A stretch of 52,276 bases of DNA, from the NCBI RefSeq assembly GCF_002571385.2, contig NW_019217897.1, positions 291,987 to 344,262 of the forward strand. The letters are read 5' to 3'. The notes under the pieces were generated by a model that was not told the DNA's origin, searched no databases, and saw only the letters and a program-made list of their open reading frames with translations. Positions 14,050 through 51,805 of the stretch are shown here, piece by piece; within the stretch, counting starts at the first letter, position 1, and each line of letters starts with the position of its first letter. The position numbers and the translations under genes were made by a program. The DNA comes from Stylophora pistillata. Lineage: Eukaryota.

Positions 14050-17000
14050 GAAAGTTAGTTAGAAAGGAGCTTAGAGATCCCAGCCCGCCAAGATGCTTCA
14101 GATAAAATTAAGGGAGATGTGACGTATCGTGTAGCAGTTTTAAGGGACGTAAAATTTTAACAAAAGCATGCAAACTTTAAGATTTTATGCTTCTGAGTTC
14201 ATAGATTTTTTTCGACGGCTTAATCAGTTGATTAAATATGCATAAACGCGAACAGTCATCTCAACTTGCAACTCATAGCAGGCTCTCTGTTGCCGGTAAA
14301 ATAATTTAAAATATTGACAACCAAGATCACTGATATATTTCGGAACAGTCTGAATCGGAATATCTATTTAAAAAGCCACTCCTAGCAGGCAAGCTTTTCT
14401 CCTGTCATATTTTTTTTCATAAACTTTTCAATATGCATCGCATGAATAAAATTCTGAACTTTTTGATCGTGAAAATTATGTTCGGTTTAGCCTACCTTCA
14501 TTTCAGTCGACCTTTAATGAACGTGACGTGTTTCCAAAATAATAATTACAAAAGTGAATTCTTTCTCTTATTTTTGTTATAATTAAGAGGGGATCTTAAA
14601 GCTTTTGTCTTTTCTTCCCAGGGAAACAAGGCAACAAGTAAAATATTAATACATACAAAACTCTGATATGAATGTGTTAGCTCTACCAATTTTTAAAACC
14701 TATACTTATTCTTAAATTTTACCTGAGTAGGGAATCGAGATTGAAGCAGTGAACGGGAAGGATATTGTTGCATGTTACAAGCCTTATCAATTTCTCCTTC
14801 GCCTTCGTCTTTTTCCTTTTCCAGGAGTCTTTTCTTCTTCTGCAATTTCGTAAAATGTATATGAGTAGTTAAAGCTAAGAGACAACAGAATGAGATAAAT
14901 TGCACTTGGAAAACAAGCTGAACTTGTAGACTCAGTCTCATAACGACTAAAAAAGTTCACATATAGTACAATTGCATGTTCTCTGTTCAAAAGATTTCAT
15001 GTTGACAACATTTGATAAGAGAAACATTTAGGTCACTTCATTTCTCTCATGAAATTTCAACGTTATTCTAAAAATTAGAATAGAAAAAAAAACCTAGCCT
15101 ACCAATGGTTGTCCCTTGAAGACATCGTTGGCGGCATCATTATGAACAGACTGGAAAATTTTGACTGACTTGACCCTGTCTTGTTTGGGACCGTCATTTA
15201 GAATAGCTGGAAAGGGATCATTGCATTGCACGTCCATGACAGCGCCTCTGTTTTAAAAGTTTCGAAAACAAGTTTTGAAAGGGTTTTCCAGAATGTTTCC
15301 AGTCGTTCCCTATGACATTAAACAGTATGAAATATTCATTGCTCTTAGCACCGCGTTAGCCAATCATTTGGCAGGGCAAAATTTTAGATAGTTTCGAATT
15401 GCTTTGATGGTTCAATGGGAGTATCGTTTTAACAATCATATTGATAACATTTATGTGATGATTTCTTTGTGGTGGTTGATGAGATGATGCGACGATCATA
15501 GCAGAAGGTGAAAAATTCAAAGACAGGGATTTTTCTGGGGCCTACGACGTCCTCTTGTTGCCTCTTGTTTCTGATGCTAATCAATGCTCGACTTTATTGT
15601 GTCCAACTTTATAGACATATCTAAAGTTAGGGGTTCTTCATAGATGAAATGTGGAAATCTCTTAATGTGTCAGGAACAGATGGGGGTAAACACCTGTCAT
15701 TTTAAAGCGTCTTTCACCTTTGAAGATTAAAGTTTTAGGACAACTTAACCACTGTCGATCCCTCCAGCATGGAGATTGAGTACTTCAGAAATATTACCGA
15801 CCGAATGAAAATCTTGAAAAACTCGATAGAGAGGGATGTCAATGAACTGGTTGAAGCGGTTCTTAAACCGCTGGCTATTTTCTACGGCTTAAACGGTAAC
15901 AGAGATCCCCCATTGCCTCAGGAACTAGAGAGGAAAATAAGAGGATTTTTCACAGACGTCTACTGGACTTTGAGACTCCACTTGTTCTTGCACCTTGAAA
16001 ATCCTCTCGACATTAGCAGAATCCTTGAAGTGGGCGAATGGGGCGGCCTGAGTACCAATGACATGAGGGATATGGGTGACCAACACTTTAACCATTTTAC
16101 AGACCCTGGAAGCAACCTCTTGGAACTGGTGAGTGGATTGAGATTTCACATGCTTTGCTTTTACTAACTATCTCATCTCGCTAATCACTGCTGAGGGCCA
16201 TGGAAGGAGCTAGATTACAAACTGAAAAGAGATCAATTTGATTTCAGTAGAGCTTTTTTTTTGTCCTTGTCAGAACTATTTAAGTACTCTGAAACGGTAT
16301 CTAGCTTGGAAAGGGTACTGCTTTCTGGCTGGCGCGCGTTCGATCTTCCAAATTAACGGGGCATTTTAGTAAAAGAGCCTTCCAAAACCAATGAAGGAAT
16401 TTCAGACTAAGCATTTTAGATTTATTATGGCCCGTTTGGCGAGAGCGAGGTTTGTTCTGGCTCGGTCAAATCAAAAGGGTGAAGGAGCGACCATGTAATG
16501 TCTTGAGACCATTTAGTTTACATCCTGATGTTGAGTTTTTAATTCTACGAATTTTTGCATATTTTCTATATTTCAGCTCAGTTACCACCTGGAAAGTACC
16601 ACCCAAAGAGGGAGCAAAAAGCATGCCACAGATGTATTAGCATTAGCAAAATTATTCCTAGGCCATCTTCAAGCCGAAAACATCTTCCTACCAGACGTTT
16701 TGGTCATGGTTGAACACGTGCCTACGGAGAAGTTTTTCGTAGGTGCATCAATAGCAGTAAGTGACTTTGTAAGGCCTATCAGTTTGTACAATCGAATCAC
16801 TAATCTTAAAGGAAGCCTCGTAGCTGCAGTAATGCAGTTCCCTTATTCATGTCCTCCCTCTAAGCTAGATCTACGTAATTGGAGATTTTCATATGCCCGT
16901 AAAAGTCAAACCAGCGCGACAAGATATGATTCTTTGACTAGTGAGCTACCTTGCCAAAATTGTAGAACGTTGTTGACAAATGAGTTTTAGGGAAAGGGAG

Positions 17001-24456: not shown

Positions 24457-26456
24457 TTATATTGGTTCTCCCCTGAGTTGGTTGATGGCATCAGCAAGCA
24501 TTCTGTTACACATGGCAGCATATGGATTCATCTGTACTACCACGGACCTTGCAAATGCATTGCCAAGCTCTGCAGCCTTTGTAAAGTCCTTGAGAGCTTT
24601 GTCTTCATTACCATTTAGGCTATGAATTAATGCTCGCTGTGTGTGTGCCTGAGCAGCAGCAGCACCTCTGTCTTTGCCTAGTTGGATAGCTTTGTCTAAA
24701 TCTTCCAGAGCACTGGGTATATCTCCTAAAGTCAAAAATCAATTGCAGAATTAGATTCAGTTTTGTTGCAGAAAACATCAAACCCCACCCAATACTCTCC
24801 ATCTTCCACAGACAAGATCTCACATAAAATGTATCTCATGCAAGGGTATGGTTAATGGGGTCTTGAACTTATTTAAGGCCATTATTGATTGCGCTAACAC
24901 AATTTTTGGCAAAATTTGGAACAGCAAGCATAAGTTTAACTCTTTATCATTTCCATCTAGCACATAATCAGCATATCTTAGGTTTCTTTGAAGACAACAA
25001 TTCTATGCAGAGTCCTGACTTGTTAGGTTGCTTACATTTATGCCTTCTAAGTTTCCTTCCAACTTCAGTCTACTTGCAATGTCTTGGGGTATGAAAGTTA
25101 CCATAATGCTGAGTTGTTTGTTATCAAAAGGACTAAGCACACCAGAAGTAAAGATGCCTTAGTCCCCTTTCCTGCTTTCATAGTAACCAAATGGCATTGA
25201 TGCTAACATGATGCTGGTATTAACCATACATCTTTAGATATTAAGTCAAACCTTTAATTCCAGTCTGGAATTAAGTACACTACTTAATTGTGTTATAAAG
25301 GAGCAAGAATGTAACTGGATATAAAGAAGATATGATCATATTTTTTTGACAATAACTTTACATTTTCGACTGGTTTTGTGTTTCGTTTTTGAAAAGCACA
25401 CTTTGAGAAAAAATAATGTAATTTTCAAAACTAGCAAAATTTTAAACATCATTTGGAAAAGATTCAAGCAATACTGGTAGCATAATATGCTTCTTTAACT
25501 TGATTAATCTATGAGGGCCCACCTTGCACCACCTGAACAACCTCCTCTGTCATATAAAATTATTATTTTTAAGTCTGCTCAATGACATAGAGCAGTAAAA
25601 ATGTTACACTTCAGGTGTGAAAAACATCGAAATCCAAAAAAGGAGCTGTTCTGGTGTTAGATACTCCATTTGTTAGTCCTTCTTAGTGCACTAATACAAG
25701 CCTACTTACACACAAGTTGGAGCCGCCATATCTGCCATTTCACATAAGGTAAATTGGAAAAAAGTTGAAAATTATAAAAAGCATCCTGTTTTCATCTTAG
25801 AGTAAAAGTAACTTCAGAAAGAGACTGCCTGAGCTTTCCATATAAGTGACCAGGACTTATTCCAGTTCCTATAGAAAGAATGCCAAAGTAGAACGGGAGG
25901 GTATCATCCATTTTCGAGCCTATTTTCGACTAAATCCCTAAATATCTTGATCTTGAATCCAAGTCCCAGTGAACCAAATCTCAATTTTCTAGTGAAAAAT
26001 TTGGCAACTTAGTTTCTAAGAGCCTTTTTTCTATAGCACATTCACCTGTATGTCATACCTTGTTCTTCCCCCTACAGCAAACTTATCTTACCAATCTACA
26101 TGATAGCAACTTTCAGAAATACAATAATTTCGATTAGATGATACTCAATAGACTTTGAACAAATAAAAACTTTAATTACCTTTTAACCTCCACAGCTGAG
26201 CTCTATTGTTGAAACACGAAGACCGTAGAGGGCAAATTTGGCAAGCTTGGTTAAAACACTCCAATGCCCCATCCAAGTCGCCTTGTTCCGCTTTCTCAAC
26301 ACCAGATGCCTCCAGTTGTTTAGCTGACATGACATCCTCAGTATTTTCTTCATTTATTTCGTTTTCATTTTGAAGCTTTGCAGCAACATCGCCCAAGGGT
26401 AACAGAGGATTAAAAATGCTTTCCAACACTGCTTGATCCTTCATACTAATCGCCAT
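24457..26456 (-). CDS. TTC36: Tetratricopeptide repeat protein 36; exons 26456-26180 and 24725-24457, 181 aa
   Basis: Recognisable TTC36 motifs DQAVLESIFNP, NNRAQ, ALEDLDKA and NPYAAMCNRMLAD. Start context aaaATGGCG; phase-1 GT-AG intron (G|gtaatt ... tttag|GA). Confidence 0.95.
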
Positions 26457-27255
26457 TTTGTTTGCAAACTCTGATCGAAAGCAATCTGGGTACAACTATT
26501 ACCTCATTTCGTGTCTCGCGTTGTTGCTGCGTGTTTCTTCCGCGCATTCTCCCGCGAGGTAGCTCCGCGTGGTGATGATTTATGTTCGTGTCACTTATTC
26601 AAAATAAATTTATAGAAAATAGTGGCATTTTCAGACTGTTAGTTACAGTTAGTCATATTTCCTTCTTTTGCTTTCCAAATACTCTTATTTTCTCAAGTTG
26701 TCGTCGTCAACTTGAGACGGAAGGGGAGACTGGGGTCTAAAGCATCATTCTCGTGACTGGCCTTAAAAAATCTACTAGATTTCAGATTGAGCCGTTTAAT
26801 CTTGGGGAGATTTTGGAAGATTCGCCATGGAGGGAAGTATTAGAGTCAGCTTACCGCCTGTATCACTGAAGGTCAGTTTATTTACTTTTGGCAGGTTCGT
26901 TTTCAAGCTTCCTTCCAGCTATGATAGGACACTATTGGTAGATCGACTAGTGGGACTGATTGTGCATATGTCAGTAGTTTTGAAATGATTGATGGATTTC
27001 TTTTAACGTTTCTAGATTGTGGTGTCAGTTCATTTTATTCTAACGATATGGTAAGTATCTAAAACCAGATGTTCTAAAGGCGTGTTAGAATGACATGAAG
27101 CTGAAATGAATTCTAGTTTACTATTGAAAATGAAATAAACTAGCTAGGAGAACTATACTTGGGGGGCAAAAGAGAACTCGACCAGCATTGTGATAAACTG
27201 AATAGGATAGACTCTTCATTATCTCCAGTGAATTAATTTTGCGTGGATTTTAAAG

Positions 27256-35940: not shown

Positions 35941-38900
35941 TTACTGGGCATCCTCTAGCTTAGCTTTACGCTCTTCTTCCTTCCTTTCTGCTTTTCTTTT
36001 TTCCCTAAAAACTTTTAAGTGCCTACGTTTGAATAAGTCACGCTTCCTTCTTTTTCTGTACTTGTGCTTTTTCATCTTCTTACGACGTATCTTGAGAATG
36101 CCCTTAAATCTCTTGCATTGTAAAGTTTTGGTATCTTGTGTGTCATCACCAACTGTAAGTTCATGTGTGTCATGATCCCCGATGATTGTTCTGATGATCC
36201 TTGAACAATGTGGAAAAATCAACTCTTGGATTGTTTCCTTAGGAATCTCAGGCAATATTACATCATATCCAGGGTTTCCACCAGGGAAAACTCTGCCATC
36301 ATTGGTTGTGTTAAGAATCAATAAATTTGGTCTCTGAAGCAATAACGGAACAGTAGAAAATAAAGGGAAACTTTTGGTGGAATGTGCCGCTTTGTTCAAT
36401 TGTGCTGCTGTTCCAGTTCCCAAATCTGCAAATGTAAAGCAAAACAAGAAATGACAATTATGTTACAAAACGAACATAATATTGTTTAATGTCGCCAAAG
36501 CTCTTGGAATGTTAGATTTGTGACAATTTCGAAGAAAGCCCACAATTTGGTGACCAGGTTTCAACTTAAGTTTAAGTCCTTGAAACTGAGACAATTATAG
36601 CAATAAATTGTTGTGTAAAGCTGGTGCCAAGTACTAGATAATTAGAGTCATTAAATGTAATTGTTATTCACTGGATGAGCTGAATGCTTTATGAACTTTT
36701 TAACTATTACTATACATTAGCCTTACTACAAAAAATCTGATTGGTCAACTGCATTCAATCAATATACAAGTGTGTGAAGTTGACATGAAATTCCCAGTAT
36801 CTGCAGTGGGTATTGCAGTTATCATGTTGAGTTTTAAGTCTGCCTAGTTTCCCAGCCATTCATCCAAGCAGTGTTCTCAAACTTTTCAAACTCAATGAAA
36901 AGAATCTTCTTTTGCAGATCGTTTACCAGATGTATAATAAAACAATTACTGTAATCAGTTTTTGTGTGATATCATAAATCATCAAACATCAAGTCTGAGT
37001 TATCTGCCTCAGCTTTCTGCTTTGCCAAATGACTCAGACTTCTGTTTTGATAATTCGTGAAATCATGGTCGACCTCATCCAATAATTGCTTAATATCACT
37101 GCCAATTGAGACCATACCAAATTGAATGGCAAAAACAGAAAAAAAAGCTCCAAACTCATGGTGATGCAAAAATCTAAAGTACACTATTCAATAAACATGA
37201 AAGGCATGAAAAGACAAAGGCAGAATCTGAACCAATCAAACAGCCAATCAAGATTCATCTGCTGATACGGAATGGCCATGGCTAACATAATTGAAAATGT
37301 GGCAATGAACTCAACTCAAATGTTGTTTTCACTCCACTCCAAACCTCTCTGTTAGCTCAGCTAAAAAAAATTCTTGTCTTAAATCTATTTTGTTTTACAC
37401 TATTTTTTGAATATTAAGAGTTTTGGTGAGACAGGAAAAGATAGGAAGGATCAGCAACGCCTTGAATTGGAAACATTAGTTATCATTTACATGCCGATGA
37501 CAAGTGTATGCAGAAAGCTACATATTAAGAGTAAGTCTACCTTCAAATCGGTTATGTAAGTTTACGGAGTAACTGCAGAATACCATGCCACTCATTTACA
37601 TTTTTACATTGTGCATCTCACAACAAGATCTCTTTTGAAAAACAATGAACAACTTTGAACTTTTATTTATTTCACACTGTTAATGGAAGTTAATATTTAT
37701 ATGAAAAATAGGAGAGAGAGAAGAATAAAAGTAATATTTGGTCATAAAGATAAGTTTGAGAGGTGCACGGTGTCCAAAGTAGCAAAAGCTTTCTAGTTGG
37801 ACATCATAATGGTCATATAAATAGATAGCAGCCTAAATAAAAGTAAATCAGCGGTAAAGTAAGTAAAATGATTAGGTTTAGTTGAACAAGGTTGAAGTTT
37901 CCATTTTTCCTTAAGAGTAGATCAGTAGCAAAGTAAAATGATCAGGTTTGGTTGAGCAAAAGTTGATGTTTCCATTCTTTTTTAAAGCTATTGTAAGGCA
38001 TATATTTAAGATAAGTGGGTACGATTTCCCATATCTTTGAAGCAGAGAATAATTATAAAAGATGATTTTTGGTGGATACTCTTAGTCTAAAAAAATTATT
38101 ATTAGAAGCAAATCTTGTATTATAATTATGTTTTTCAGATGCTGGGGTCAGGATATCAAGGAAGATATCTGGAATGCTATCACTTTTAATATTAATCTTA
38201 TATGTAAGGCAGCATATTCTGAATTTATAAATAGCATCCAACTTTAGAATTCCTAATAGTTTTTAATAGGGATTGGCACTTTCTCTAACATTTGCAAAGA
38301 AGATGCTGCCAGGACATTTCTTCTGCTTAATACAGAGGCATTTTAAGTTAGTATTGGTGGCACAGCCCCAGGTAGTTATACCATAGCTTAAATAGGGATA
38401 GATCAAAGCATAGTATAATTTTTTTAACATATTAAATTTGACATGTCTCAATATTGTAAGAATTCCAGTGTTTCTTGCTATTTCACTGTTTATATGTTAT
38501 ATTTGCGGTTGCCAATTTAGGTGCTTATCGATATAGACTCCCAGGTATTTTATATAATTCTTTGATTCAATGTTTTCAATATTTATCCTGGGGTGGTATC
38601 TAGGAGATGAAATTAACATAACTAGTTTTTGCAAAATTAATAGACAACTTATTTAGTGCACAGTATTTATAGATTTAAGCTCATGATTCATAACAGATTC
38701 TAGATTATGTGGGTTGTCACAAGTAAAAAACAAGTTGGTATCATCAGCAAAGCTCTGCACTGAAAGTTTATCAGTGCAATTGGTAAATCATTAACATAAA
38801 GTAGAAATAAAAGTGGACCTAGAGTTGAGCCTTGAAGTATACCACATGTTATAATTTCATTGGCATATCTAGTGGAATCTACTTTGACATATTGGTTACG

Positions 38901-40732
38901 GTTTTGAAAAGAACTCTCAAACCATTTATGCGAGACTCCTCAAACGCCATATAAAGAGAGCTTAGACAGTAGAATGCTGTGATTTACTGTGTCAAAGGCC
39001 TTTGACAAATCAAGAAATAGACCACATGTGATTTGTTTTCTATCAATTACTAGCTTTAAATTGTCTGTAATTTCAAGAATAGCCTGCTCAGTTGAGTATC
39101 CTTTCCTGAATCCAAAATGATATTTGTATAAGATTTGGTGTTTTTCTATGAAGGAATATAGTGGATTGTAGACTAGTCATTCAAGTATTTACTGAAAGGT
39201 GAGAGAGTTGCTATAGGGCGATAATTGCTAGGGTTTGTAGCATCTCCATTTTTATATACTGGAGACACCTGAGAGACTTTTATATATCAGGAACAATGCC
39301 AGTTTCTATAGACTGGTTGTAAATATATGTTAGAGGTATTGACAATGGTTGAGCAGCTATTTTGATTAATTTGTTAGGGATATCTAGGGATGACTTGTGG
39401 TCATTTAAGCATTTAACTATTGAGCAGACTTGGGTTTCAGTAACACAAGATAGAACAAAGCTGTCTACCGGGGTTGATTTAATGTACTGGGTAGGATTTC
39501 CTTCACGACATACCCCTCTGTAATCCAGAAAAGGAAGCGATCGCTGTACGTTTATGAGCTAACCCCCCGAAAAAATACCGGAGGGCGTCTGCATCTGAAG
39601 GGTTTATAGTTTATAGTAGTTTATAGTGGTTTATTCACAATTAATCACACACAGAAAGCAAACAAAAACTAACAAACAATACATTAACAACAAAAATACA
39701 TGAAAAATTGTGAAAGGAGATAGAAGAGGTTATCCCTTTCTAGTCCACCTCCTTAACATATATAGCAATATTAAAAAATCCTAATTACTTGTCTATAAAT
39801 TCAAAAACTATGTATATACAATTGGGTATACTTATATAATAAAAGTTTAAAATGGTAATTAGTATAAATCGTGTTTCAAGTAAATTCATTAACTATCTTA
39901 TTTCTAAAAGTTCTTAAGTCTTTTGCTTCAGCGGTCTCTATTCTTAAATTGTTCCATAAATTAACAATGTGAAGAAAGAGTGTTTATAGCAATTTAACTT
40001 GTCAGATTTCGTCTTAAGCTTGAAGCAATTGTTGGATCTCAGCGGTCTGTATTTGTCAGAAAAGCTAAGGAATTCGTATGGATTCAGACAATTCAGTCCA
40101 GTTATTGTCCTGTAGCATTCAGTGAGTGATGATAAAGTTCTCCTTTTTTCTAATGATGGCCATTTAAGTCGTTTCAATCGATCTTCATACGACATATCAT
40201 TTGCAGTTATACCAAGCGCAGATCTGGAAGCTCGTCTTTGGACTTTTTCTAGAGTAGCAATGTCTTTCTTTAGATGTGGCGACCATACTGGGGAACTGTA
40301 TTCAAGGATTGGCCTTACAAGGAAAGACATTGCTACTCTAGGAAAAGCCAAAAGACGAGCTTCCAGATTTGCAATGTCTTTCTTTAGATGTGGCGACCAT
40401 ACTGGGGAACTGTATTCAAGGATTGGCCCTCCTTGTAAGGCCAATCTTTAAATACAGTTCCCCAGTATGGTCGCTACATCTAAAGAAAGACATTGCTACT
40501 CCAGTAAAGATATATTTTCGAAAAACGTTTGTATGTTGAGGTGTTCCCTCGATCCGACAAAGAATATCACATGGTGTACAAACTTCATCACGATGGACGA
40601 TGTGCATCAATGTAAAGGTACAGTACCTTCTATCAAAATGCGAGTAGTCACTTTTGCACTCTGGCTGTGTAGAGTTCGTAAATACCAAGTAACTGCTCGA
40701 CAGATAACCTGCCTTTGAAATAACTGCTTCAT
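35941..40732 (-). CDS. AURKAIP1: AURKAIP1/mS38-like mitochondrial small-subunit ribosomal protein (DUF1713/COX24-type basic domain); exons 40732-40627 and 36425-35941, 196 aa
   Basis: C-terminal LQCKRFKGILKIRRKKMKKHKYRKRRKR matches the mS38 signature. Exon 1, MKQLFQRQVICRAVTWYLRTLHSQSAKVTTRILIE, looks like a mitochondrial presequence. Phase-1 GT-AG join (G|gtactg ... ttgcag|AT) is in frame. Confidence 0.85.
37650..39505 (-). mobile_element. Degenerate L2/Crack-type LINE (RT and 3' end) in the AURKAIP1-like intron
   Basis: Minus-strand RT remnants (NYRPI, DLSKAFDTVNH, STLGPLLFLLYVND, FADDT) and LYYALIYPYLSYGITTWG; many stops. Confidence 0.85.
39602..40500 (-). mobile_element. 5'-truncated CR1/L2-group LINE 3' end with a rearranged 5' junction
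   Basis: RPILEYSSPVWSPHLKKDIATLEKVQRRASR...YEDRLKRLKWPSLEKRR, and a 3' tail of AATAAA plus (ACTATAA)n at 39602-39636. Confidence 0.85.
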
Positions 40733-41319
40733 CTTCGACAAATCTCAAGCCGCACGCGCCGCCATAGTGGATAATAGTAGTACACAGATTCTCACGTCCA
40801 AATCTCAGGCGTGGCAGCTCATTACACTAGCAGGGGAACATTATTTGAACTGTTCCAACAATTTTGTACATAGCGCCGACAGTTCCCGTGAGGTATTACA
40901 GAATAGTTCAGCTAGAGTTAGATTAATTTTCACAGTAAGCGATGCTTCTGTTATCTAAAGCAAACTGTGGATGCTAACAGGGTAACCCACTTACTCCCGT
41001 AAGACCAGCTATCTAGTTTTGTTAAACTAGCTATCTAGCCTTATTCTGCCATGTATCTGTCCTATACCGTCATATCGCCCAATTTCACGTCAGTTTAAAG
41101 ATAAATTCCTGTCTCACCCAACATCCACAACAATCAAATGATTTAGTTGATAAGGAGTACGAGGGGCAACACTCTCACTTAATGAGAAAGGTACATCACA
41201 TCATGAACGCGAACAGGTACAGAAAACAAACGAACTTAAACAAATTTTAAACAGACGTGTATTTATTAAACGTTGTGTAAACCTTATTATCTCAAAATTA
41301 ATAATAATTATCTTTTATC

Positions 41320-42480
41320 ATCACCAGTATGGATTCAGACCACATCACTTTACTACTATGGCCATCTCTCGGCTTAGAACTTGTCAATAATATTTATGAA
41401 GGTTTTGAAAACAACCAGTACACTGTCCGTGGAGTCTTCATTGATCTTAGAAAGCATTTGATACAGTCAATCACGAAATACTTCTGGATAAACTAACTTT
41501 TTATGGCATTAGAGGTATCCCATTAACTTGGCTTACTAGCTATTTGTCCACAGACAGCAGTGCGTTGTGGTCCATGACGATACATCTTCATATAATCCGG
41601 TCGTTTGTGGGGTTCCCCAGGGTTCAGTTCTTGGACCTTTACTTTTTCTTTTATACGTTAATGATCTTTTTCATGTCTCCAACCTCTTGTCTATCATTCT
41701 CTTTGCTGATGGTACAAATATCTTTCTTCGTCATAATGACCTGGCTACCTTAGCAACCATTCTCAATGTAGAGCTCTCTTATGTTTCTTGTTGGTTTTAT
41801 GCTAACAAACTTACTGTTCATCCTGACAAGTCTAAATTCATCATTTTTCACCATCGACGTAAACAAATTAACTCCTCAGATATAAATATGTTTATGAATA
41901 ATTATTTCATCATGCGTGTGCAGGAAGACAAATCATTTCTCGGGATTATCATTCATGAAAATGTATCTTGAAAACCGCATATTTCTGCTGTATGTGATAA
42001 AGTCTCTAAAGAAATAGGAGTCTTGTGCAAGTCAAGGCGATACTTACCTTTTAACACTTTGAAAACTTTATATAATTCTCTTCTTCTACCCTACATAAAT
42101 TATGGCAGTTTAGTATGGGCATCTTCTTATGCTTCTTACCTTAAACTCCTTTATGTACTTCAAAGGAAAGCCGTTCGTATAATTACTTTTTCTCCTCAGC
42201 GCACATCCTCTAAACCCTTTTTTCTAAGCATAATATTCTTTCACTTTACTCTTAGTCTATAAATTCCATGTCGCCTGTTTTGTATTCTCACATTTTAATA
42301 ATCTTTTACCTGCTCCTGTTTCCTCGATGCTTCCTTTTAATTCTGAATATCACAATTATTTGACTCGTTCACGTTTTAATCTGTATAAAACCTGTCATAA
42401 ATATCAATTTGCTATCACTTGGCAAGCTCCTATTATTTGGAATGATATTCCGTTATCGGTGGGCAATAATCTCACAGGAA
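41320..42480 (+). mobile_element. Degenerate LINE RT fragment (L2/Crack-type), runs into a gap
   Basis: QYGFR, FDTVNHEILL, GVPQGSVLGPLLFLLYVNDL, LFADGT, LYNSLLLPYINYG; frameshifted. Confidence 0.88.
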
Positions 42481-42630
42481 GNNNNNNNNNNNNNNNNNNN
42501 NNNNNNNNNNNNNNNNNNNNNNNNNNNNNNNNNNNNNNNNNNNNNNNNNNNNNNNNNNNNNNNNNNNNNNNNNNNNNNNNNNNNNNNNNNNNNNNNNNNN
42601 NNNNNNNNNNNNNNNNNNNNNNNNNNNNNN

Positions 42631-42730
42631 CAATTTCTCCTCACTTATTTTAAGACCATAAGTATTGGTCCGGCCGGGGCTCGAACCCTCGACCTCCCGC
42701 ACAACCCAATCCGGCGCTCTAACCAACCAA
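42631..42730 (-). mobile_element. tRNA-derived SINE 5' part next to a gap
   Basis: Minus strand reads ttggttagagcgccgg...gaggtcgagggttcgagccccggccggacc (A/B boxes). Confidence 0.65.
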
Positions 42731-42965: not shown

Positions 42966-43310
42966 GGCCCAATTCAGACGTCGTGTTTAAATGCAATTAA
43001 GTTCGACTTAAGCACTGCAGAAACACGACTCTGATTCAGGTATCAGGCTTTATTGAAGAGAAGTAACAATTCATTCTAGTAACTTCCCATGAGAACGTAA
43101 TCCCGTCAAAATACAGCAGTAGCATTTTTTAATTTTGTTTGGCTCAGCGAAGACACGACGTTTGAATCGCTGTCGCGCCAGAGTCGTGTTGCCCGATAGA
43201 GCTTGTCGAACTAGATTAAAAAGTTTAATTCCGACGCCGTGCTTTTGTCCAACTTAATTTCTGGACTGAGTTCGACACAGCAGGAACACGACAATCCAGT
43301 GAACTGGGCC
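42966..43310. mobile_element. MITE with GGCCCA(A/G)TTCA termini
   Basis: ggcccaattca ... tgaactgggcc followed by taa; internal subterminal repeats (gtcgtgtt / aacacgac). Confidence 0.6.
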
Positions 43311-44500
43311 TAAGATTGGTCCTTGCGGGGCCCGTTATCAGTAAGAGAGAGTTCACTGCAGTTTGATCGTTAAGTCCGATTGCAGGTTTTTACTGGACTC
43401 CAGTAAAATAGGACCTAACCTCGTCGCTGTAGTCTTAAACTTATCTTAACAAGTAACAGCTGACATCTGATTACGACTCACTGTCTCAGGTAGCATGAGA
43501 CTCTTAACTGTTTACCATTCTGTCATTTGATCGAGGCGACACGTTCGAATTTGGTCAGCGCTCTCACCCTTAAAGAGACAACTAGGTCTACCAAAAGGTG
43601 TCACGATGATAACAACAACAGTGAGCGCGGCTTATCCTGGTTAGTTCAAGTGGATAAGTTAAATTTGAGGATAGGTTGTTTTTTCTCTTTGTTCAGAAGA
43701 CGGCTTCCTCTTCAGCCTTATATCATGAACATAACCTCGAGTACAGATAAAAGTGTAACAATTACAATCAGACTGTCAAGCTTTCAGTTATTTTTTATTA
43801 CTTTTCAGTTTTTATTGATATTCAAGTCTGGGAATGAGAACACCGTTAAACAAACAGTATGGGCCACCATAATTTAGTAGAACAAAAAACGTACTATGTT
43901 GATTATAGAGCAAGTCGGATTCCTTAATTTTCATACTTTCTAAGTATTTATAAGCTGACAAACATAAGTATTTATAAGCTGACAAACATGGACCGAAAAT
44001 GCTATTGTTTGATAAAAACGCAAATTTTATTTGTCAATAACAAAATTATATATGTCATGATTCATTCATTACTTAAAATGAGTAAACAGCAAAAAGGTAT
44101 GAAAAATATACTCGAGTGCTTGTAAATGGTATAATGGGGCTCGAAATGGAGGCGCGACTCATTAGACATTTCTTTGAGTCCCGATATAGAGCACTGCTAC
44201 TATTTACGATTGGTGCTATAGCAATAGGAACCTGTACTTTTCTTCTGGAGGTCGCATATTGCGTTCTGCCTAATGTACACATCTCAAAACAGAGCTTTTT
44301 ATTGAATTCAATGGTCATTTGCGTATATCATAGAGCTCATCAGCATCGTTGAACTACCTCAAAGCTAGCCGTCCCCGACCCAAGAACATGGCTGCAAGTC
44401 ATAATTCTTTACAAGGCAGATAGATAATTCTGACTTGAGAGCACTGGACCATTCCGTATATTAACCATTTTCTGGTGGATTATGCGAATCGTTCTTAATT

Positions 44501-45325
44501 TCACACCCCAATGGCTTTAACGTCCGTTTCTTCAACGCAGCCGCACTCAATTATTTGTCTAAAATGCAATGGAAGAGAAATACCGACAGCAAAACACATG
44601 ACGTAGAGGTAAATAACCCTCTCGACAAACCTTATACATCGGAGCATTTCTTCAGAATTTTGGAAACGGTATATGACAGAGCAGGTTACATCCAAAGCTA
44701 TAATTGTTATTATACCTATGGAAATCAAAATCGTATAACACACAGACATCTTATTTTTTCTTAAAAAGCCTAGGAAAGTATTCGTGTCTGCCAGTTCCTC
44801 CGAGTCGTCCTCAGTAAAGGTGCAAATTCTCCACGACACCACAAAGACAAGGCCCATGATCAGCAAGCAGGCCACAGTTATGGCAAGATGAGATGAACAC
44901 AAATCTGCGGCGGAGAAAATAACCAAGAATAATCCAATACCACCACTGATGACTACAAGAAAAATCAATGCTGCTTTGGGAGATATTGCCTTCGTGAGGC
45001 CGATTATAGTGTGATGCTCGATTGCCAGCATTGCCAAAATGTTGTAAATCATAAGGAATCCAACAGAAGTCATCAGAATGCTGTTTGTTCCGCACCACTC
45101 CTCCTCCTGTTTGTTTTTGAAAGCTATTGTGGCCTCGTTGGCATTCAAACTGAGAAGGATGAGCTGTAAAATACTCTGGCAAATCATCAGTGGCCTGCTT
45201 TTCTGAAGAATCGTGTATTTCGTTTTGTCCTTGAAGCAGCTGGTTAATAGTCGTGCGTTGTGGAAGAGACCAAACAGATGAAACATTATGAGCAACCAGT
45301 AGCACAGCTCCATGATATCCACCAT
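44501..45325 (-). CDS. Intronless 274-aa seven-transmembrane protein, divergent class A GPCR-like
   Basis: Seven hydrophobic segments; TM1 GLFHN, Cys at the top of TM3, NILAMLAIEHH at the DRY position, TM7 ISLPLHF. Two paralogs lie nearby. Confidence 0.8.
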   Translation of the reverse strand: MVDIMELCYWLLIMFHLFGLFHNARLLTSCFKDKTKYTILQKSRPLMICQSILQLILLSLNANEATIAFKNKQEEEWCGTNSILMTSVGFLMIYNILAMLAIEHHTIIGLTKAISPKAALIFLVVISGGIGLFLVIFSAADLCSSHLAITVACLLIMGLVFVVSWRICTFTEDDSEELADTNTFLGFLRKNKMSVCYTILISIGIITIIALDVTCSVIYRFQNSEEMLRCIRFVERVIYLYVMCFAVGISLPLHFRQIIECGCVEETDVKAIGV

Positions 45326-46944
45326 CCCGCTAAGAAAGAGTGAGGTGTCGGGTCTACAGTTCTCAGATTGGTTTTATGCAAAAACAACACTCTCTTTATA
45401 TCCAAATGAAATATAAAGATTTATTATGTAAACCATAAGCAACATTCGTGACACTGAGGCTAAGTTATCAATATTGCTCCCTTGATTTTACCGTGAGTTT
45501 GTCACGGTCAGTTATGTAGTATGCTCCTAATCAGCAAAACTTTGTTTGACTCAGTCTGACATGAATTAAAACAGGTTGTCAAATTTCCAGTCTGTTTATT
45601 CAGCGGAACGAATTAAAGGTTTCGCGTTTTTTTATTAGTTGCGGTAACAGGCCTTCAAGAGGCTAAACAACGAGCAATATTGGACGATGAAGAAAGAGCT
45701 TTGAAAATGCACGGAAGGCTCGCTTAGTCACGAACCATGACCACAGCGGCATCATGCCAAATTCTCTGGCAAGATACATTGGATGAATTTCAATTTCTTA
45801 AAAGTGTTTCCGAGGCTTGGTATCGCATCAGAGTTGAGGCTGAGTTTAGGGAAAGAGGAAAAGTTGAGGTAAAAAACTCAACGAGGAAACTCACTTAATT
45901 ATAATTGTGCAAACCAAACATAACAATATGTTGGCGATCTCTTAAACCTCTATTGTTAATTGTTCTCGTTTCTTAAAGCGCAAGCCCACCGAATCCATAG
46001 ACAGTCTGTCTTGGGAACAAATATAATTTCAAATTTTATCAAGTTTCATCTCTTCGATCTTCAACAAGCCGATGTGGGAGCACGGAATCGGCAAAGTATG
46101 GCATGAATCTACGGTACGGTCCTTCGATACTTTTCATTTCCGACTTTCAGTGTTTTGGAGCTGTCACTGGAAAAAAAAAAAAAACGAGGCATTAAAAAAA
46201 GGTAGAAATACTTTAAGCTTGGGTCTAATCCAGAACCGCCAAAGTGCTCAGCTTAATATAAATCAGTTAAGCACCCACCACTGGAGCCCAGGGGTTTCAG
46301 TTGTCTGAAGGCAAAAAAGGACACATTGTTCATTATGCTCACTATTTGAATTTCAGTTGAGCGCCCTAAGAATTGTGAAGTCTCTTTTTAGTGATTTAAG
46401 CAATGAGTTCTCACGGATTAATACTACGGCTTCTACTTAAGCTCTCTGAAAAATTGAAGATTAGGGGTAGACAGTAATTCCGATAGCGAAAATAAGATAT
46501 AAAGGTATAGTAGGAACTTGTGTGGAAGTCCAAGTTTAAATCATCCAGACATATCAACTTATATTCAAATGCAAACGTTACTCTCAATACCCCAAACAGT
46601 CAAAACTAGGAATTTCTTATAACGGCTGAAAGTCGAATAACCTTGGACGTGGAATTTGTATGATCATACAAACACGTCACATACGACAAGCTCATGATGA
46701 AAACCGTCCTTGACTATCGTGTATATCATAACAACATGGTGGTGAAGATATATAACACAAATCAATCGACCGGGTACCGAACATCTCATCCTTCTGCGAA
46801 GTAATCCGTGAAAAGAATGTAAAGCGGAAGTTACTATGATAAACCTTCCCACTGAAAATGGGTTAGTTTACGAAGGGTCAATAAAGTGCGACAAACCAAC
46901 CACTTTAGTTTCATGCCGGATCGATTTTCTCCCATTCAAAATCA

Positions 46945-47979
46945 TTAGCACTCAGTTATAATTAAAAACTGTAAGCAAAAGGGGAGAAAAATTCCTACTA
47001 CAAGCCAAATCACGTTGGTAGAGAAGAGGTGAACCAATTTTTTTACATCCACCCATTGTTGTACATCGCTCATCTGCACTACTCCCGCTAAATTTGAAAG
47101 AGTAAAAAAAAAACGCAGAAGACAGCTAAACCTGTCAACCAAGACACAGTCCCTTTACCTTCGACTGCAGAATCTTGTGGCGTGACTTGCGTTATATCTG
47201 GAGCACCACGTAAATAAATCTTCCAGGCTGATATCAACAGAATGATACTGCTTAGCCCACAGGTTGCGGCTGAAGCAAGATGAAGGCTGATAGTTTCGAA
47301 AGAAACTGTTTGGGGCTGCGTCGGTGGGAGTAACGAAATAATTTGGATATATCAACAAAGTTGAAACGGTAAATTGGCCACCGTAACGATTACAAAAGCT
47401 GAAGTTTCGAGCGTTAGCGAAAGGGCTAACATTTGCTCCGACGAAGGGCTAACGCTCGAAACGTCAGCTTTTGTAATCGTTACGGTGGCCAATTTACCAT
47501 TTCAACTTTGTTGATATATCCAAATTATGAAGAACGATGAGGCACGTACAAAGACCTGCCGTAAAGAAACATCCTGCCCAGAGTAAACTACCACAAGTTA
47601 TAATTCCAGCAATTAATACTGCTGAAATGGCTTGTATAGGAGAAAATATACGCTTTAAATCAAGAATGGAGAGGTCTTCTATTGCTTGTATTTCCAGCAG
47701 GTTGTAAATCAAGAAGAACGTAATGCAGGCCATAAACAAACCTTTAACGTCGTACCTTTGCTTTTCTTGGTGGTCGCTGAAATCGTTTGTTACCTGACAT
47801 GCATTAAAAGTAAGAAGAATCAGTTATAGAAAACACTGAAATATCATGGCTGGTCTGCACTTCTGAAGTAAAATGTATTTCTTTTTGTTCTTAAAGCAGC
47901 TTCCGCTCAACAACAGTCGCACGTTAAGTAAAGCTCCGATGAGATAAAACGTCCTCGAAAGGATAAATATGGGATCCAT
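46945..47979 (-). pseudogene. Pseudogenised paralog of the 7TM family
   Basis: MDPIFILSRTFYLIGALLNVRLLLSGSCFKNKKKYILLQKCRPAMIFQCFL*LIL... has TAA at 47826-47824 where the paralogs have Q. It also carries an insertion at 47286-47526 and a frameshift in a T-run near 47110. The C-terminus VGIFLPFCLQFLIITEC* aligns with VGISLPLHFRQIIEC. Confidence 0.85.
47286..47526. mobile_element. Penelope-like terminal fragments in inverted orientation, inserted in the 7TM pseudogene
   Basis: Arms ~47338-47418 and ~47448-47528 are reverse complements. Contains ccgacgaagggctaacgctcgaaacgtcagc and is nearly identical to 29221-29370. ATGAAG flanks both sides. Confidence 0.8.
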
Positions 47980-49990
47980 GGCCGCAGTAAAAATCAACTA
48001 TCAATCAAGACCCACAGGCTGATCTGAAAGAAAACTAGATTTGCAAGAATGCTCTTCCGCTCTCTGTTTTTGTAACATCACGCAAGATAGAAGCCGTCAT
48101 GCATAAAGCGCGAACAAATGCTCGACCTTTTAGCTCACGCAATTCCTCTTCACTTTGATAATGTTAGTGAAAAACTGTACATGATAGAATGGTTCCATTC
48201 AAAACATATTTAGTTAAAAGCCAATTTAAAAGACTGAAATCTGAAGTTTTGTTCCCATTGTATTATAGCTTATTATGACATAACTTAGACACAACGAGCG
48301 CTCTGACTGGTCAAAGGTCTATTGTTTATTTGCCTGTATACCCATAGAAAACTGAAACATCTTACCGTCCTGTCAACTGGCGCCGCGAGGGGCGAATTCC
48401 CAGCCTTTGGTTTGAAGGATGTGACGAGGACTCTTAGATCGCCAAAAACAACGACAAATAATTCATTATATATTTTATTTGATATTTTAATTAAAATGCA
48501 GTTTAACTAATTGGCTGCTCTCGCGTTTTAAGTCTTTATTTTTTGTAGCGCAGTTTAAGTAAGAGAACTTCAGAACTTTTTGGCTAGAATTTCCGAAAGT
48601 GCTCGCCGGGAAGGACAAGTTGGCATGCTTCTTATTAAAGAAAATTGTAGCGACAAACTAACTAGATTTTCATTTAGATATTTATTTGATGAAAACAAAA
48701 ATCTCTTGCAAAGTGAATGAGCGCTCAAGATTAATGGCATTTCCGTTTGCTGTCCGAGATTTCACCTTTCGTTTGATAGTTTTTAACAAGTTTAAGCGTT
48801 TTAAACTCTCTCTGTAAATTTTAACGAGTACTCCAAGAAAACTTAAGTTCAAGCTGAGGCAGTAGAAACAAATCTGGTTGAAAGAAAATAATGTACCAAG
48901 AGTAAACAAAATAAATGGTCGGTGTTTGAATATTAGTGCACACGGCTCCATGTTGTTGTCTTCCGATTGTAGTGTCCAGGCCTCCAAGTCCATGCCCAAG
49001 GCCCCAAGAGATTTAGACTCGAGTACTTATTATGCACTGTGAATGAGAGCAGGGTGATGAGAAAATTTAGGATAACGAACAAACAAGGTGAACTGTAAGC
49101 GAACTGTGTAAGCGAATTCCTGAACGTTACACCGATTTTGCCGCTTTTGTCGTGGTGCGGTCCAATAATGTCATTTAAGAATCTAAAGTTAAGTTATCAT
49201 GATCGAAATAAATTTTATCAGTTAAAATTCTACAACCGATCTTTATTTTGCTGAAATACCTCCGGAAAAACTCAAAACTGCTACCCATGCTGCAAACTTA
49301 AAAAAAAATTTCCGTACAGATTATCAGATCGTAATCGCAGCGATAGGCCATTTCTGGCCGAAAAAAACGTTTTCTCCCTCCAAATTGAAGTGTTCTTCGG
49401 AAGCACTTTATAGCTTGAGCCTTTTCTTGAATATCGCCATTTCTCGTTAGTTTTCATTACAATTTCTGCTCAGTTTCTCCGTGGCATAGCTTTCATTCAG
49501 CGATAAATTACCATTCTTCTCTCTTCTGGCTGACAGTTTATTCAGTTTCCGGCGCTTTGATTGGTTTATCGCAATTTTTAATGGTTTTAATGATAATCAG
49601 CGACTTGATCACAAAATAATATTAAGTCAATCATTCTCTCTGAAAAACCTCACTCGTATTTTAGGTCGTTGAAGAAATAAACCACACTTTGGGATGTTGG
49701 GAGAACACTCCAAAAGTTTATAAACCACTCGGCTGCGCCTTGTGGTTTACAAACTTTTCTCGTGTTTTGCTCCTGTATTTACGCTATAACACTGTTCTTA
49801 GCACAAACCCTTATCGCCAAAGGACAACCTGTTTTTAAAGGAAATGAACAAGATCTTCCCTTGACTCGGCTATGTTTGCAAGTAATGGCGGAAACGATGT
49901 CTACGAACCCTTTACTTAAAAAGGAACTATAACTATCAGGTGTGAAGATCTACACATTAATGTAAACGGTCTCAGTGAACAAGATACCGG

Positions 49991-50882
49991 ATGAGATGCA
50001 ATGAATATATGAAGTTCATATATTTTGAACTGCGGTATTAGATACGTATGATGTGCGATCCTCGCAGTAGATAGCGTTATTTATGCAATAGCGAAAATCA
50101 GACCTGAAAAAAATCAGGCCTGTACGGGACTCGAACCACTGACCTCTGCGATACTAGTGCAGCGCTCTACCAATTGAGCTAACAAGCCAACTGGGAGCAG
50201 GCCGTTAAGTTGATTCGTAATAAACCCGTGAAAGTGATAAATGAGATGCAATGAATATATGAAGTTCATATATTTTGAACTGCGGTATTAGATACGTATG
50301 ATGTGCGATCCTCGCAGTAGATAGCGCTATTTATGCAATAGCGAAAATCAGACCTGAAAAAAATCAGGCCTGTACGGGACTCGAACCACTGACCTCTGCG
50401 ATACTAGTGCAGCGCTCTACCAATTGAGCTAACAAGCCAACTGGGAGCAGGCCGTTAAGTTGATTCGTAATAAACCCGTGAAAGTGATAAATGAGATGCA
50501 ATGAATATATGAAGTTCATATATTTTGAACTGCGGTATTAGATACGTATGATGTGCGATCCTCGCAGTAGATAGCGCTATTTATGCAATAGCGAAAATCA
50601 GACCTGAAAAAAATCAGGCCTGTACGGGACTCGAACCACTGACCTCTGCGATACTAGTGCAGCGCTCTACCAATTGAGCTAACAAGCCAACTGGGAGCAG
50701 GCCGTTAAGTTGATTCGTAATAAACCCGTGAAAGTGATAAATGAGATGCAATGAATATATGAAGTTCATATATTTTGAACTGCGGTATTAGATACGTATG
50801 ATGTGCGATCCTCGCAGTAGATAGCGCTATTTATGCAATAGCGAAGATCAGACCTGAAAAAAATCAGACCTGTACGGGACTC
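49991..50882 (-). repeat. Tandem array of a 250-bp tRNA-like/SINE unit (at least 3.5 copies, continues into a gap)
   Basis: Unit starts at 49991, 50241, 50491 and 50741; copies are nearly identical. Each full unit has a tRNA-like segment (e.g. 50188-50116) followed by a T7 run. Confidence 0.95.
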
Positions 50883-50991
50883 NNNNNNNNNNNNNNNNNN
50901 NNNNNNNNNNNNNNNNNNNNNNNNNNNNNNNNNNNNNNNNNNNNNNNNNNNNNNNNNNNNNNNNNNNNNNNNNNNNNNNNNNNNNNNNNNN

Positions 50992-51805
50992 TTGAGCAAG
51001 TGATTTGAACAGGGAGTTCGTTTGGATTGGTGCTGAGGCTCATATTATCTTCAAAAAGAATCAATTGTGCGAAAGTTGCAGATAAAAGAATTTCCACTGC
51101 CAATAAACCTACGGTGTTATAAATGAATGCCAGAAGCCATGTAAGGGTTTCTTCGTTATACAACTCCCTTCCTTGAATCCATAGAATACAAATGTAATAT
51201 ATGGAAACCAAACTAGAAAAAAGTGTGATCGCCTTCCATATGTTTTTCACAGTTGACTCTTCACGTTTGAAATCGAGTTTCGGCTGCATTTCTTTTAGAT
51301 CATCCATCGCTTTATCGACATCGCATAAAAACAGTATCCACGCTAAAATCAATACGCAAACAGTCAACAGTGTACAAGCAATGAATTTAAACCAGTAAAA
51401 TATTGCACAGGTAACAACTCCAGCAATCAACGCTGCTGCAATCGCTTCAACGGAAGATAGCGCCCGTTTAAGGCCAAGTATGGGATGGTCCGTTACTGCT
51501 ATTACCCCCAACATGTTGTAAAACAAGAAAGGCCATAACAGATGAATTAGCTCACCACCGGTTCTGTTCCACTTATTTTCTTGATCATCAAAGTAGCTGA
51601 ACATTTGCCCTGTTCTGTTGGTGTTCCAAACAAGGACAATCAGTTGTAGAACGCACTGAAAGATCATGATTGGTCTGCATTTCTTTAGAAAAATGTTCCT
51701 CCGTTTGTCTTTGAAGCAGCTCAGTAACAATCTTAAGTTAGAAAAAATTAAAATGAGATGAATAGCGTCTGTAACCAAATATAAGCACTTGATGAATAGA
51801 ATCAT
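50992..51805 (-). CDS. Third 7TM family paralog, intronless; C-terminus lost in the gap
   Basis: Likely start caaccATG at 51805. Shares N.RLL.SCFKDK, L.K.RP.MI.Q..LQLI, YN.L and I.GL..A.S with 44501-45325. Open for at least 270 codons up to the Ns. Confidence 0.78.

Follow-up and report, generated by a model that had tools for sequence, protein, structure and literature searches.

A divergent, expressed gene family with a predicted GPCR fold in a tandem cluster of the coral Stylophora pistillata

The analysed stretch, referred to here as the window, comprises 52,276 nt of the Stylophora pistillata genome (GCF_002571385.2, NW_019217897.1:291,987-344,262, forward strand), and coordinates are positions within it unless another contig is named. 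It carries three tandem paralogs on the minus strand (copy 1, 44501-45325; copy 2, ~46950-47979; copy 3, 50992-51805), which belong to a real and expressed protein family. The predicted fold of this family is the one that G protein-coupled receptors (GPCRs) have, and the pattern of conservation on its cytoplasmic side is unusual. The family is apparently an undescribed, family-level variant inside the GPCR superfamily. No description of it was found in the literature searched, which covered few subscription papers, and four of its accessions occur in 0 papers.

The presence of three same-strand paralogs at these positions had been proposed in an earlier note on this DNA and is confirmed by the open reading frames (ORFs) and by a whole-genome search with copy 1. 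This search returned copy 2 with an E-value of 9.5e-19 and copy 3 with 3.6e-17, and the similarity among the copies is therefore not due to chance. The cluster comprises the following features:

43790-44500, minus strand: 3′ untranslated region (UTR) of copy 1, ~700 nt, with AATAAA at 43794 and 43811
44501-45325, minus strand: copy 1, intact seven-transmembrane gene with a single coding exon, 274 aa, TGA stop at 44501-44503
46948-47979, minus strand: copy 2, pseudogene with a TAA, a repeat insertion, a frame change and loss of the cysteine of transmembrane helix 3 (TM3)
47280-47532, no strand assigned: high-copy hairpin repeat inside copy 2, ~241 bp, with ATGAAG on each flank
49991-50882, minus strand: 250-bp tandem array, 3.6 copies, one tRNA-Thr(AGT)-like unit per full copy
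50883-50991, no strand assigned: assembly gap of 109 N hiding the end of copy 3 (final codons and stop), bridged by a contig of run X17
50992-51805, minus strand: copy 3, open, transcribed and fast-evolving paralog, 271 aa seen, 277 aa with the bridged end

The copies had been described earlier as intact, pseudogenized and gap-truncated, and the first two of these states hold. In copy 2, the in-frame TAA lies at 47824-47826 and corresponds to codon 52 (six-frame translation and tblastn), the frame changes between 47091 and 47076, and the TM3 cysteine is gone; the copy is 64% identical to its intact relative P0025 over residues 1-143 (tblastn). The truncation of copy 3, in turn, belongs to the assembly. 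The contig of run X17, a run whose kind is not on record, closes the gap with six extra codons ending K-N-T-T-Y-I, followed by a stop (letters read by eye). Since copy 3 extends past TM7 and this contig supplies its end and stop, copy 3 is complete, though divergent: it lacks the TM3 cysteine, most of extracellular loop 2 (ECL2) and the glycine and proline of TM7, with a serine at position 7.50. Its relatives P0112 and P0082 likewise lack the TM3 cysteine. A 19-residue hydropathy scan at a threshold of 1.4 gives seven segments in copy 3 and six in copy 1, because the amphipathic TM2 of the latter scores below the threshold.

A fourth, frameshifted copy lies just outside the window (contig C114, ~349.3-350.2 kb). 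In runs X9 and X17, contigs lack it (L076:6138-7391; C114, ~349.0-350.3 kb) and carry 150 other letters instead; together with the matching loose ends found in raw reads, this points to a likely presence/absence polymorphism. Immediately upstream of this copy, a minus-strand transcript with no obvious long ORF (L076:7392-8364, depth 15-28 in raw reads) may be a non-coding RNA or belong to the 3′ UTR of a different gene. Within the window, a contig of run X8 joins 47893-47986 to 46098-46197, skipping 46198-47892; the joined ends share a TTAAA microhomology rather than GT-AG, and the junction may stem from an allele in which most of copy 2 is deleted, or from an artefact of the library.

The transcription of the cluster was assessed with pooled raw reads (X24; four runs, of which ~2% was read) from bulk polyA ‘coral metagenome’ runs, with the strand of the RNA assigned by the usual stranded-library convention. 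Copy 1 is covered at a depth of 6.5-24 over 43742-45288 in the first-mate-plus direction, versus 0-2.1 in the opposite one; over the gene itself the two directions stand at 7-24 and 0.4-2.1. The depth is 0 in 43300-43741, and contigs begin at 43828 and 43866, at the 3′ end of copy 1. This signal is minus-strand RNA with a 3′ UTR of ~700 nt. One X15 contig runs uninterrupted over 44031-45408, and the 15 joints shown (of 40) all lie outside the coding region, which is therefore one exon; the 5′ UTR of copy 1 may contain an intron. Copy 2 has a sense RNA depth of 0 except in the repeat bins. Copy 3 is covered at a low depth of 0.9-5.5 in one direction versus 0 in the other, and by contigs of X9 and X17.

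The RNA of copy 1 holds five variable sites (44774, 44843, 45004, 45005 and 45017). Of the seven alternative alleles, one is silent and six exchange the residue conservatively (F to L, I to V, I to M), and the assembly letter at 44774 and 44843 is seen in 0 of 14 first-direction reads. Between copies 2 and 3, the region 47941-49266 is covered ~1-8 deep by RNA opposite to the receptor direction, possibly an antisense or non-coding transcript.

The family was counted with five protein searches of the genome and a hidden Markov model (HMM) scan of the window and 23 stretches. It comprises ~21 loci on six contigs, of which 8 are intact, 11 disrupted and 2 cut by gaps, together with three small fragments. 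The loci are clustered, with 11 of them in ~60 kb of contig C66 and four on C114. This number is a lower bound, given the 4.7 kb of N right after the window and further gaps in C66 and C603. Three extra genome searches with divergent queries returned known loci only, and the census therefore appears near saturation for detectable members; no additional copies lie in C114:352801-382800. The tandem birth-and-death mode proposed earlier agrees with these counts and with the absence of copy 4 from the contigs of two runs, and the turnover of the family is live.

Outside this genome, 30 proteins match copy 1 at 42-98% identity, and its close relatives in other corals stand at 52-55%. Four of the 30 are named: three from Oculina patagonica, two of them with consecutive locus tags, and one from Desmophyllum pertusum. 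At E up to 0.001, a profile search returned the representatives of 147 clusters built at 50% identity. Judged from the named homologs, the family has so far been seen in stony corals. A quick tree of a subset of the proteins (70 rows), with support from the Shimodaira-Hasegawa-like approximate likelihood ratio test (SH-aLRT) only, splits into two large groups (SH-aLRT 100), with the genes of the window in the smaller one. The nine rows of this genome are spread over several clades together with outside sequences. Copy 1 groups with P0009 of Oculina (SH-aLRT 97), and copies 2 and 3 with P0020/P0024 (95); copy 3 has a branch length of 1.58. Since copy 1 and copies 2/3 each group with outside relatives, the tandem pair is old, and its two paralog lineages are common to it and Oculina.

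The ratio of nonsynonymous to synonymous substitution rates (dN/dS) was calculated for 11 pairs, six of which were saturated (dS >1.3) and four usable. The recent pairs gave 0.53 (p 0.002), 0.54 (p 0.0003), 0.53 (p 0.003) and, for copy 3/copy 4, ~0.7 (p 0.14), ratios which are inflated in the two pairs that have a pseudogene partner. Purifying selection is thus significant in three of the four. Class A receptors of the same genome gave 0.30 and 0.39, in the two of 10 control pairs that were unsaturated.

The structure of copy 1 was predicted with AlphaFold using 34 and then 77 sequences. Both predictions contain seven long helices, with a predicted local distance difference test score of 76.6 and 85.4 and a predicted template modelling score of 0.76 and 0.83, respectively. 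The predicted topology places the N-terminus outside and the C-terminus inside the cell. All matches listed by Foldseek against the PDB are GPCRs (E 0.0016-0.022). An independent search of 48,161 chains likewise listed GPCRs in 50 of 50 rows, with Z 14.8-16.9, a root-mean-square deviation (rmsd) of 3.8-4.9 A and 224-257 aligned residues. Across four PDB structure searches, all listed matches are GPCRs, and their Z exceeds 13, the value up to which helical bundles call for caution. The seven-transmembrane GPCR fold proposed earlier is thus supported, also by Foldseek, which had been suggested as a check, although the Foldseek E-values stay above 0.001. The assignment of the predicted fold to the GPCR superfamily is strong and made with high confidence.

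The structure does not fix the class of the receptor. The best structural matches tie between TAS2R14 (Z 16.9, rmsd 4.5, 240 residues aligned), cannabinoid receptors, peptide receptors and GPR156, and structures of TM184, GPR137 and TOM1 are not among the listed PDB rows, which does not speak against them. Scores below 0.9 in the language-model search are treated as leads only, and the same-family level is 170 shared features of 256. With paralog L004 as the query, unnamed clusters come first, followed by families of GPCR type only (7tm_1, Dicty_CAR, Git3, 7tm_2, Ocular_alb); copy 1 returns unnamed clusters and weak leads to THH1/TOM1 (0.89) and GPR137_N (0.88). At the sequence level, a Pfam scan up to E 10 yields no 7tm family for copy 1 or copy 3, in line with the orphan status claimed earlier. 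A sequence-profile search of the PDB gave a single match at E 5.3, nothing meaningful. In a viral structure library, GPCR-annotated rows stand on top, none at E up to 0.001, and no viral origin is claimed.

The anatomy of the family was derived from 77 aligned members and compared with 27 class A controls from the same genome, which were picked by their best fit to the Pfam profile and thus favour canonical motifs. The best-kept residues are N23 (68 of 77), C30 (70), Q50 (72), Q54 (64), C78 (66), N95 (68), G248 (74) and P252 (74), and the family signature reads N-x-R-M-L-x-x-C-F, Q-x-x-x-Q and G-x-x-L-P. The proteins are short, with ~270 aa compared to 333-421 aa in the controls. The near absence of an N-terminal ectodomain, described in the earlier note, is seen family-wide: a median of 19 residues precedes N1.50 in 68 members, versus 24-108 in the controls. 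The signature of intracellular loop 1 (ICL1) proposed in the same note is present as written, and in copy 2 it is broken by a two-residue insertion and a stop. ICL1 is strongly basic, carrying on average 4.7 K/R in each sequence where the outer loops carry 0.4-1.3, and this sets the predicted N-out topology.

Part of the class A frame is kept. N1.50 is present in 68 of the 77 members and P7.50 in 74, the distance from N1.50 to C3.25 (N23 to C78) is 54-55 residues in 36 of the 57 top-listed members versus 55-56 in 18 of 26 controls, and L3.43 stands in the same spacing as in class A. Because these four positions keep their register, class A ancestry is considered probable. The TM3 cysteine and a cysteine at the TM4 end or in ECL2 are both present in 62 members, both absent in six and present singly in nine (Fisher p 2.6e-4, kinship of the members ignored). 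As the two are kept or lost together, a TM3-ECL2 disulfide of the class A type is likely. The retention of the TM3 cysteine in a single copy, reported earlier, is true of the window and does not extend to the family, where 66 of 77 members keep it.

The class A activation motifs, in contrast, are lost. D2.50 is replaced by Q in 72 of 77 members, 27 residues past N1.50 in 47 of them (the D of the controls lies at 28 residues in 24 of 27), and the L[AS]xxD expression matches in 20 sequences, always outside TM2. The residue 25 positions after the TM3 cysteine is Arg in all controls and mostly E, Y, H, F or I in the family. CWxP occurs in 0 of 77 and NPxxY in 1 of 77 members, versus 19 and 24 of the 27 controls. 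The eroded hallmarks listed in the earlier note (HN/LN/SN, Q...Q and EHH/EDL/TDH) are correct as letters. The register given for DRY is shifted, since hhalign, at a probability of 0.9%, aligns it with I102-E103-H104, one residue before ‘EHH’, and LPLHF in place of NPxxY is restricted to copy 1, with copies 2 and 3 reading LPFCL and LSATF.

Variability and conservation are distributed unevenly along the protein. Outer helix halves are more variable than inner ones (entropy 2.61 vs 2.22, p 0.001). Conservation is strongest in the inner parts of TM1, TM2 and TM7 and in ICL1 (z -1.15, -0.79, -0.60 and -0.48) and weak in ICL2 and inner TM5 (+0.71 and +0.63). The C-terminal tail follows a family-wide pattern of an acidic stretch, often a Lys at -4, and hydrophobic residues to the end. 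The last residue is V, I or L in 54 of 76 members and is combined with a hydrophobic residue at -2 in 39 of 76, versus 1 of 27 controls. In this, the tail is presumably similar to PDZ ligands of class II and to the valine export signals found at C-termini.

The family can be placed next to several known systems. It shares with class A receptors (PF00001, 7tm_1) the predicted fold, the N1.50/C3.25/L3.43/P7.50 spacing, the likely TM3-ECL2 disulfide and the single-exon coding regions; it differs in having no Pfam match, no D2.50, R3.50, CWxP or NPxxY, a shorter chain, a hydrophobic tail and a signature of its own. TAS2Rs (class T) have short termini and ~280-300 aa, lack DRY and NPxxY, and form a tandem single-exon birth-and-death family. 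The coral proteins resemble them in these features and in the tied best structural match to TAS2R14; they differ in the lack of a TAS2R Pfam match and in apparently keeping the C3.25-ECL2 cysteine pair, whose disulfide is absent from TAS2Rs according to the part of PMC13172528 consulted. The same part of this source describes the coupling of TAS2Rs to gustducin, bypassing DRY and NPxxY. TAS2Rs are thus a working analogy for the family and do not stand for membership.

Among cnidarians, the odorant receptor (OR)-like genes of Nematostella are candidate chemoreceptors, often single-exon and in tandem arrays as in the coral family, and keep D/ERY, the TM4 Trp and NPxxY (Churcher and Taylor, PMC3017388, seen in part). 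The OR motifs LxxPxYxxxxxLxxxD and MAxDRY, taken from excerpts of PMC7042368 and PMC3017388, occur in 0 of 77 members each; many true OR-like members also lack them, as stated in the excerpt of PMC3017388. The cAMP-receptor-like, GPR157, GPR143 and Git3 families are language-model neighbours of L004 at 0.90-0.91 and, like the coral family, have no extra domains. They differ in that there is no Pfam match and 140-149 of 256 features are shared, below the level of 170. The GPR157 motifs TM2 LSL/V/IxD, ECL2 WCW[IVL] and TM7 QGxxN, as given in the accessible part of PMC12716839, have 0, 0 and 1 matches, respectively, among the 77 members. The ‘superdark’ TM184/PRRT proteins, described in the available part of PMC13581589, and GPR137/TOM1 likewise combine a GPCR-like fold with the lack of detectable sequence homology or class A motifs. 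They are ancient, conserved, low-copy and largely endolysosomal, whereas the coral family is multi-copy and turning over; the leads to GPR137 and TOM1 stay at 0.88-0.89, and Pfam GPR137 or TOM1 is not matched. The main text of PMC13581589, as far as available, does not mention coral or cnidaria. A coral dark-gene study lists 115 membrane-associated dark orthogroups (PMC13044578, in part), among which the family may be found, and 15 ‘taste receptor’ homologs are given for Pocillopora (PMC9897584, in part).

The preferred reading of these data, held tentatively and at slightly under an even chance, is an unnamed family of cell-surface receptors for small external molecules that signal through G proteins by a non-standard path. 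Its parts are judged separately: coupling to G proteins is somewhat more probable than its absence, and the sensing of environmental chemicals is possible, a little short of the balance. A chemosensory role is plausible, and in its way of working the family comes closest to TAS2Rs or other small chemoreceptor families in tandem. A working definition of chemosensory multigene families names tandem clusters, many pseudogenes and lineage-specific expansion without one-to-one orthologs (PMC11886862, in part), and tandem clusters with many pseudogenes are found in the coral family. In the proposed mechanism, the family would descend from rhodopsin-like receptors. The ligand would occupy a pocket in the variable outer halves, capped by the TM3-ECL2 disulfide, and Q50, Q54 and N95 would form a polar core replacing D2.50 and the sodium site. 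The basic ICL1, the possibly lipid-modified C30 and the acidic-Lys-hydrophobic tail would tether the receptor to a scaffold for trafficking or of the PDZ type. Signalling would run through a heterotrimeric G protein by a path not using R3.50, as in TAS2Rs, and the turnover of paralogs would retune the range of ligands.

Candidate partners are present, as the genome encodes several G-protein alpha subunits, which we take from their C-terminal motifs to be of the Gi, Go, Gq and G12 types. The alpha subunit gene at C139:44971-49069 (L080/L081), presumably of the G12/13 type, has its Pfam match in two large exons only, and the Gi, Go and Gq genes are multi-exon. When copy 1 (residues 1-264) was modelled as a complex with the 63 aa encoded by the final exon of the coral Gi-type alpha subunit, both runs scored 0.00; with alignments unused, an uncertain partner fold and controls that were not folded, this result speaks neither for nor against binding.

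Several observations weigh against this reading. Class A ancestry is not borne out at the sequence level: up to E 1, no 7tm family is matched by any of 34 members, PF00001 being absent from the 25 of 31 families shown. Alignment with hhalign to the 27 coral class A receptors is not significant (probability 0.9%), its single matched stretch being TM3, Cys on Cys, and the best of 30 class A controls reaches E 0.047 against the family HMM. Foldseek lists no PDB row at E 0.001 or better, and structures of the classes A, T and C (the last being GPR156 and GABA-B) lie within ~1-2 Z units of one another. Arg near 3.50 (C+23..C+27) occurs in 5 of 66 members. The family is small for a chemoreceptor repertoire, and its single-exon tandem layout is common to ordinary coral GPCRs: 142 of the 150 listed 7tm_1 matches of the genome also lie in one reading frame, in a search that scored the best 147 of 3006 candidates and so favours single-exon genes. 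As single exons are common in ordinary class A genes here, this structure, offered in the earlier note as chemosensory evidence, cannot decide between the readings. In the selection check on extracellular halves suggested there, no sign of positive selection on outer residues is seen, with dN/dS of 0.58 and 0.44 in outer versus 0.50 and 0.63 in inner halves (two pairs, pairwise counts) and no consistent difference between them.

The cytoplasmic side raises the question of whether a G protein is involved at all. The G-protein cavity of solved complexes is lined by ICL2 together with the inner parts of TM5 and TM6. In these regions, within an alignment whose TM5/TM6 columns are the least reliable, no column of the family reaches 80% conservation, whereas the class A control, biased to canonical motifs by its choice for Pfam fit, keeps R3.50, the P and Y of ICL2, Y5.58 and F6.44. 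This contrast, the conservation on the opposite face, the mostly non-Arg position 3.50 and the family-wide hydrophobic tail would suit GPCR-fold receptors that act without a G protein, the TM1-ICL1-TM2-TM7 face and the tail recruiting arrestin, GRK or a PDZ scaffold in the manner of atypical receptors. A precedent is TM184C, which has a GPCR fold and recruits arrestin and GRK with no clear constitutive G-protein coupling (PMC13581589, in the part consulted). Such independence, suggested in the earlier note, does not follow from the loss of DRY and NPxxY, since TAS2Rs couple gustducin without them, and the absence of conserved cavity-lining residues lends it modest, indirect support. Set against it are the TAS2R and GPR156 structures, among the closest to the family and solved with G proteins, and this alternative is given a minor share. 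A different doubt concerns the ligand. The 52-55% identity between copy 1 and its coral relatives and the old, two-lineage tandem pair suit a conserved ligand, so that the proteins might instead sense signals of endogenous or microbial origin (immunity, self/non-self, paracrine) or be organelle regulators like GPR137/TOM1, with a turnover that is usual for coral tandem genes. The THH1/TOM1 and GPR137_N leads and the transcripts in bulk polyA runs agree with this, but the leads stay under 0.9 with no Pfam GPR137 or TOM1 match, the TM3-ECL2 cysteine pair fits an extracellular or luminal pocket, and the disruption of more than half of the loci is high for receptors of essential endogenous ligands. 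This explanation is likewise given a minor share, about one chance in several. Desmophyllum pertusum is a deep-sea coral without algal symbionts, and the presence of the family in it makes a symbiosis-only role unlikely. Finally, the proteins could be non-GPCR seven-helix membrane proteins, such as a transporter, channel or enzyme, which share only the helical arrangement. The lack of a significant sequence match to a GPCR profile or solved structure, the rmsd above 3.8 A and the Foldseek E-values above 0.001 leave room for this, but the listed rows of the four PDB searches are all GPCRs at Z >13 and cover the whole protein, the N/C/P anchors stand in class A register, and the language-model neighbours agree; it is thus considered very improbable.

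Further features accompany the cluster. The hairpin repeat in copy 2 has inverted arms of 81 nt (47338-47418 and 47448-47528; 98%), and the summed contig depth over it exceeds 56,000. Its 6-bp ATGAAG flanks are likely a target-site duplication. Its centre presumably resembles the minimal hammerhead core of Penelope-type elements, a likeness that Rfam did not confirm: a scan of 46800-51000 gave tRNA matches only, plus a sub-threshold match to the MIR6135 hairpin. The part of PMC4209133 consulted names no coral in connection with Penelope-type hammerheads. The 250-bp array, 99% identical and with three tRNA-Thr(AGT)-like units, lies directly downstream of copy 3 and ends at the gap. It is separate from the receptor gene and represents a tRNA-derived repeat, a tRNA gene array or an assembly expansion. 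Upstream on the contig, an exon of a TPR-repeat gene (26172-26495, minus strand) and one of a COX24_C-domain gene (35941-36462, minus strand) might serve as synteny anchors for the cluster. At 15739-16990 (plus strand), two ORF pieces (142 and 151 aa), with no Pfam match at E up to 10, are probably exons of an uncharacterised gene. Retroelement remnants at 3-1858, 10734-12361 and 39944-42653 were judged by eye, and we take them to be Gypsy-like gag/protease/reverse transcriptase and LINE-like endonuclease/reverse transcriptase.

Divergent, lineage-restricted seven-transmembrane families are already a known kind, and should this one prove an ordinary orphan whose ligand is endogenous, what remains would be a gain for annotation. 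In the available part of a recent cell-atlas study, which counted GPCRs via Pfam 7tm_1/2/3 only (PMC12225738), larval settlement of corals is said to have an unknown sensory input upstream of it. A family without a Pfam match would be missed by Pfam-based GPCR counts of this type. In the most far-reaching view, it would constitute, in stony corals, a chemoreceptor class of its own, separate from ORs and TAS2Rs and unseen by Pfam-based GPCR counts, which gave up the G-protein cavity to signal via the TM1-ICL1-TM7 face and a PDZ-type tail and includes receptors for settlement or feeding cues; this is speculative and quite improbable. The eight intact genes, together with the family signature and the conserved relatives in Oculina and Desmophyllum, provide a short candidate list usable for single-cell and larval data and for ligand screens. 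With the class A frame kept, the activation motifs lost, and the opposite cytoplasmic face and the tail conserved, the family would offer a test of signalling by the GPCR fold without R3.50.

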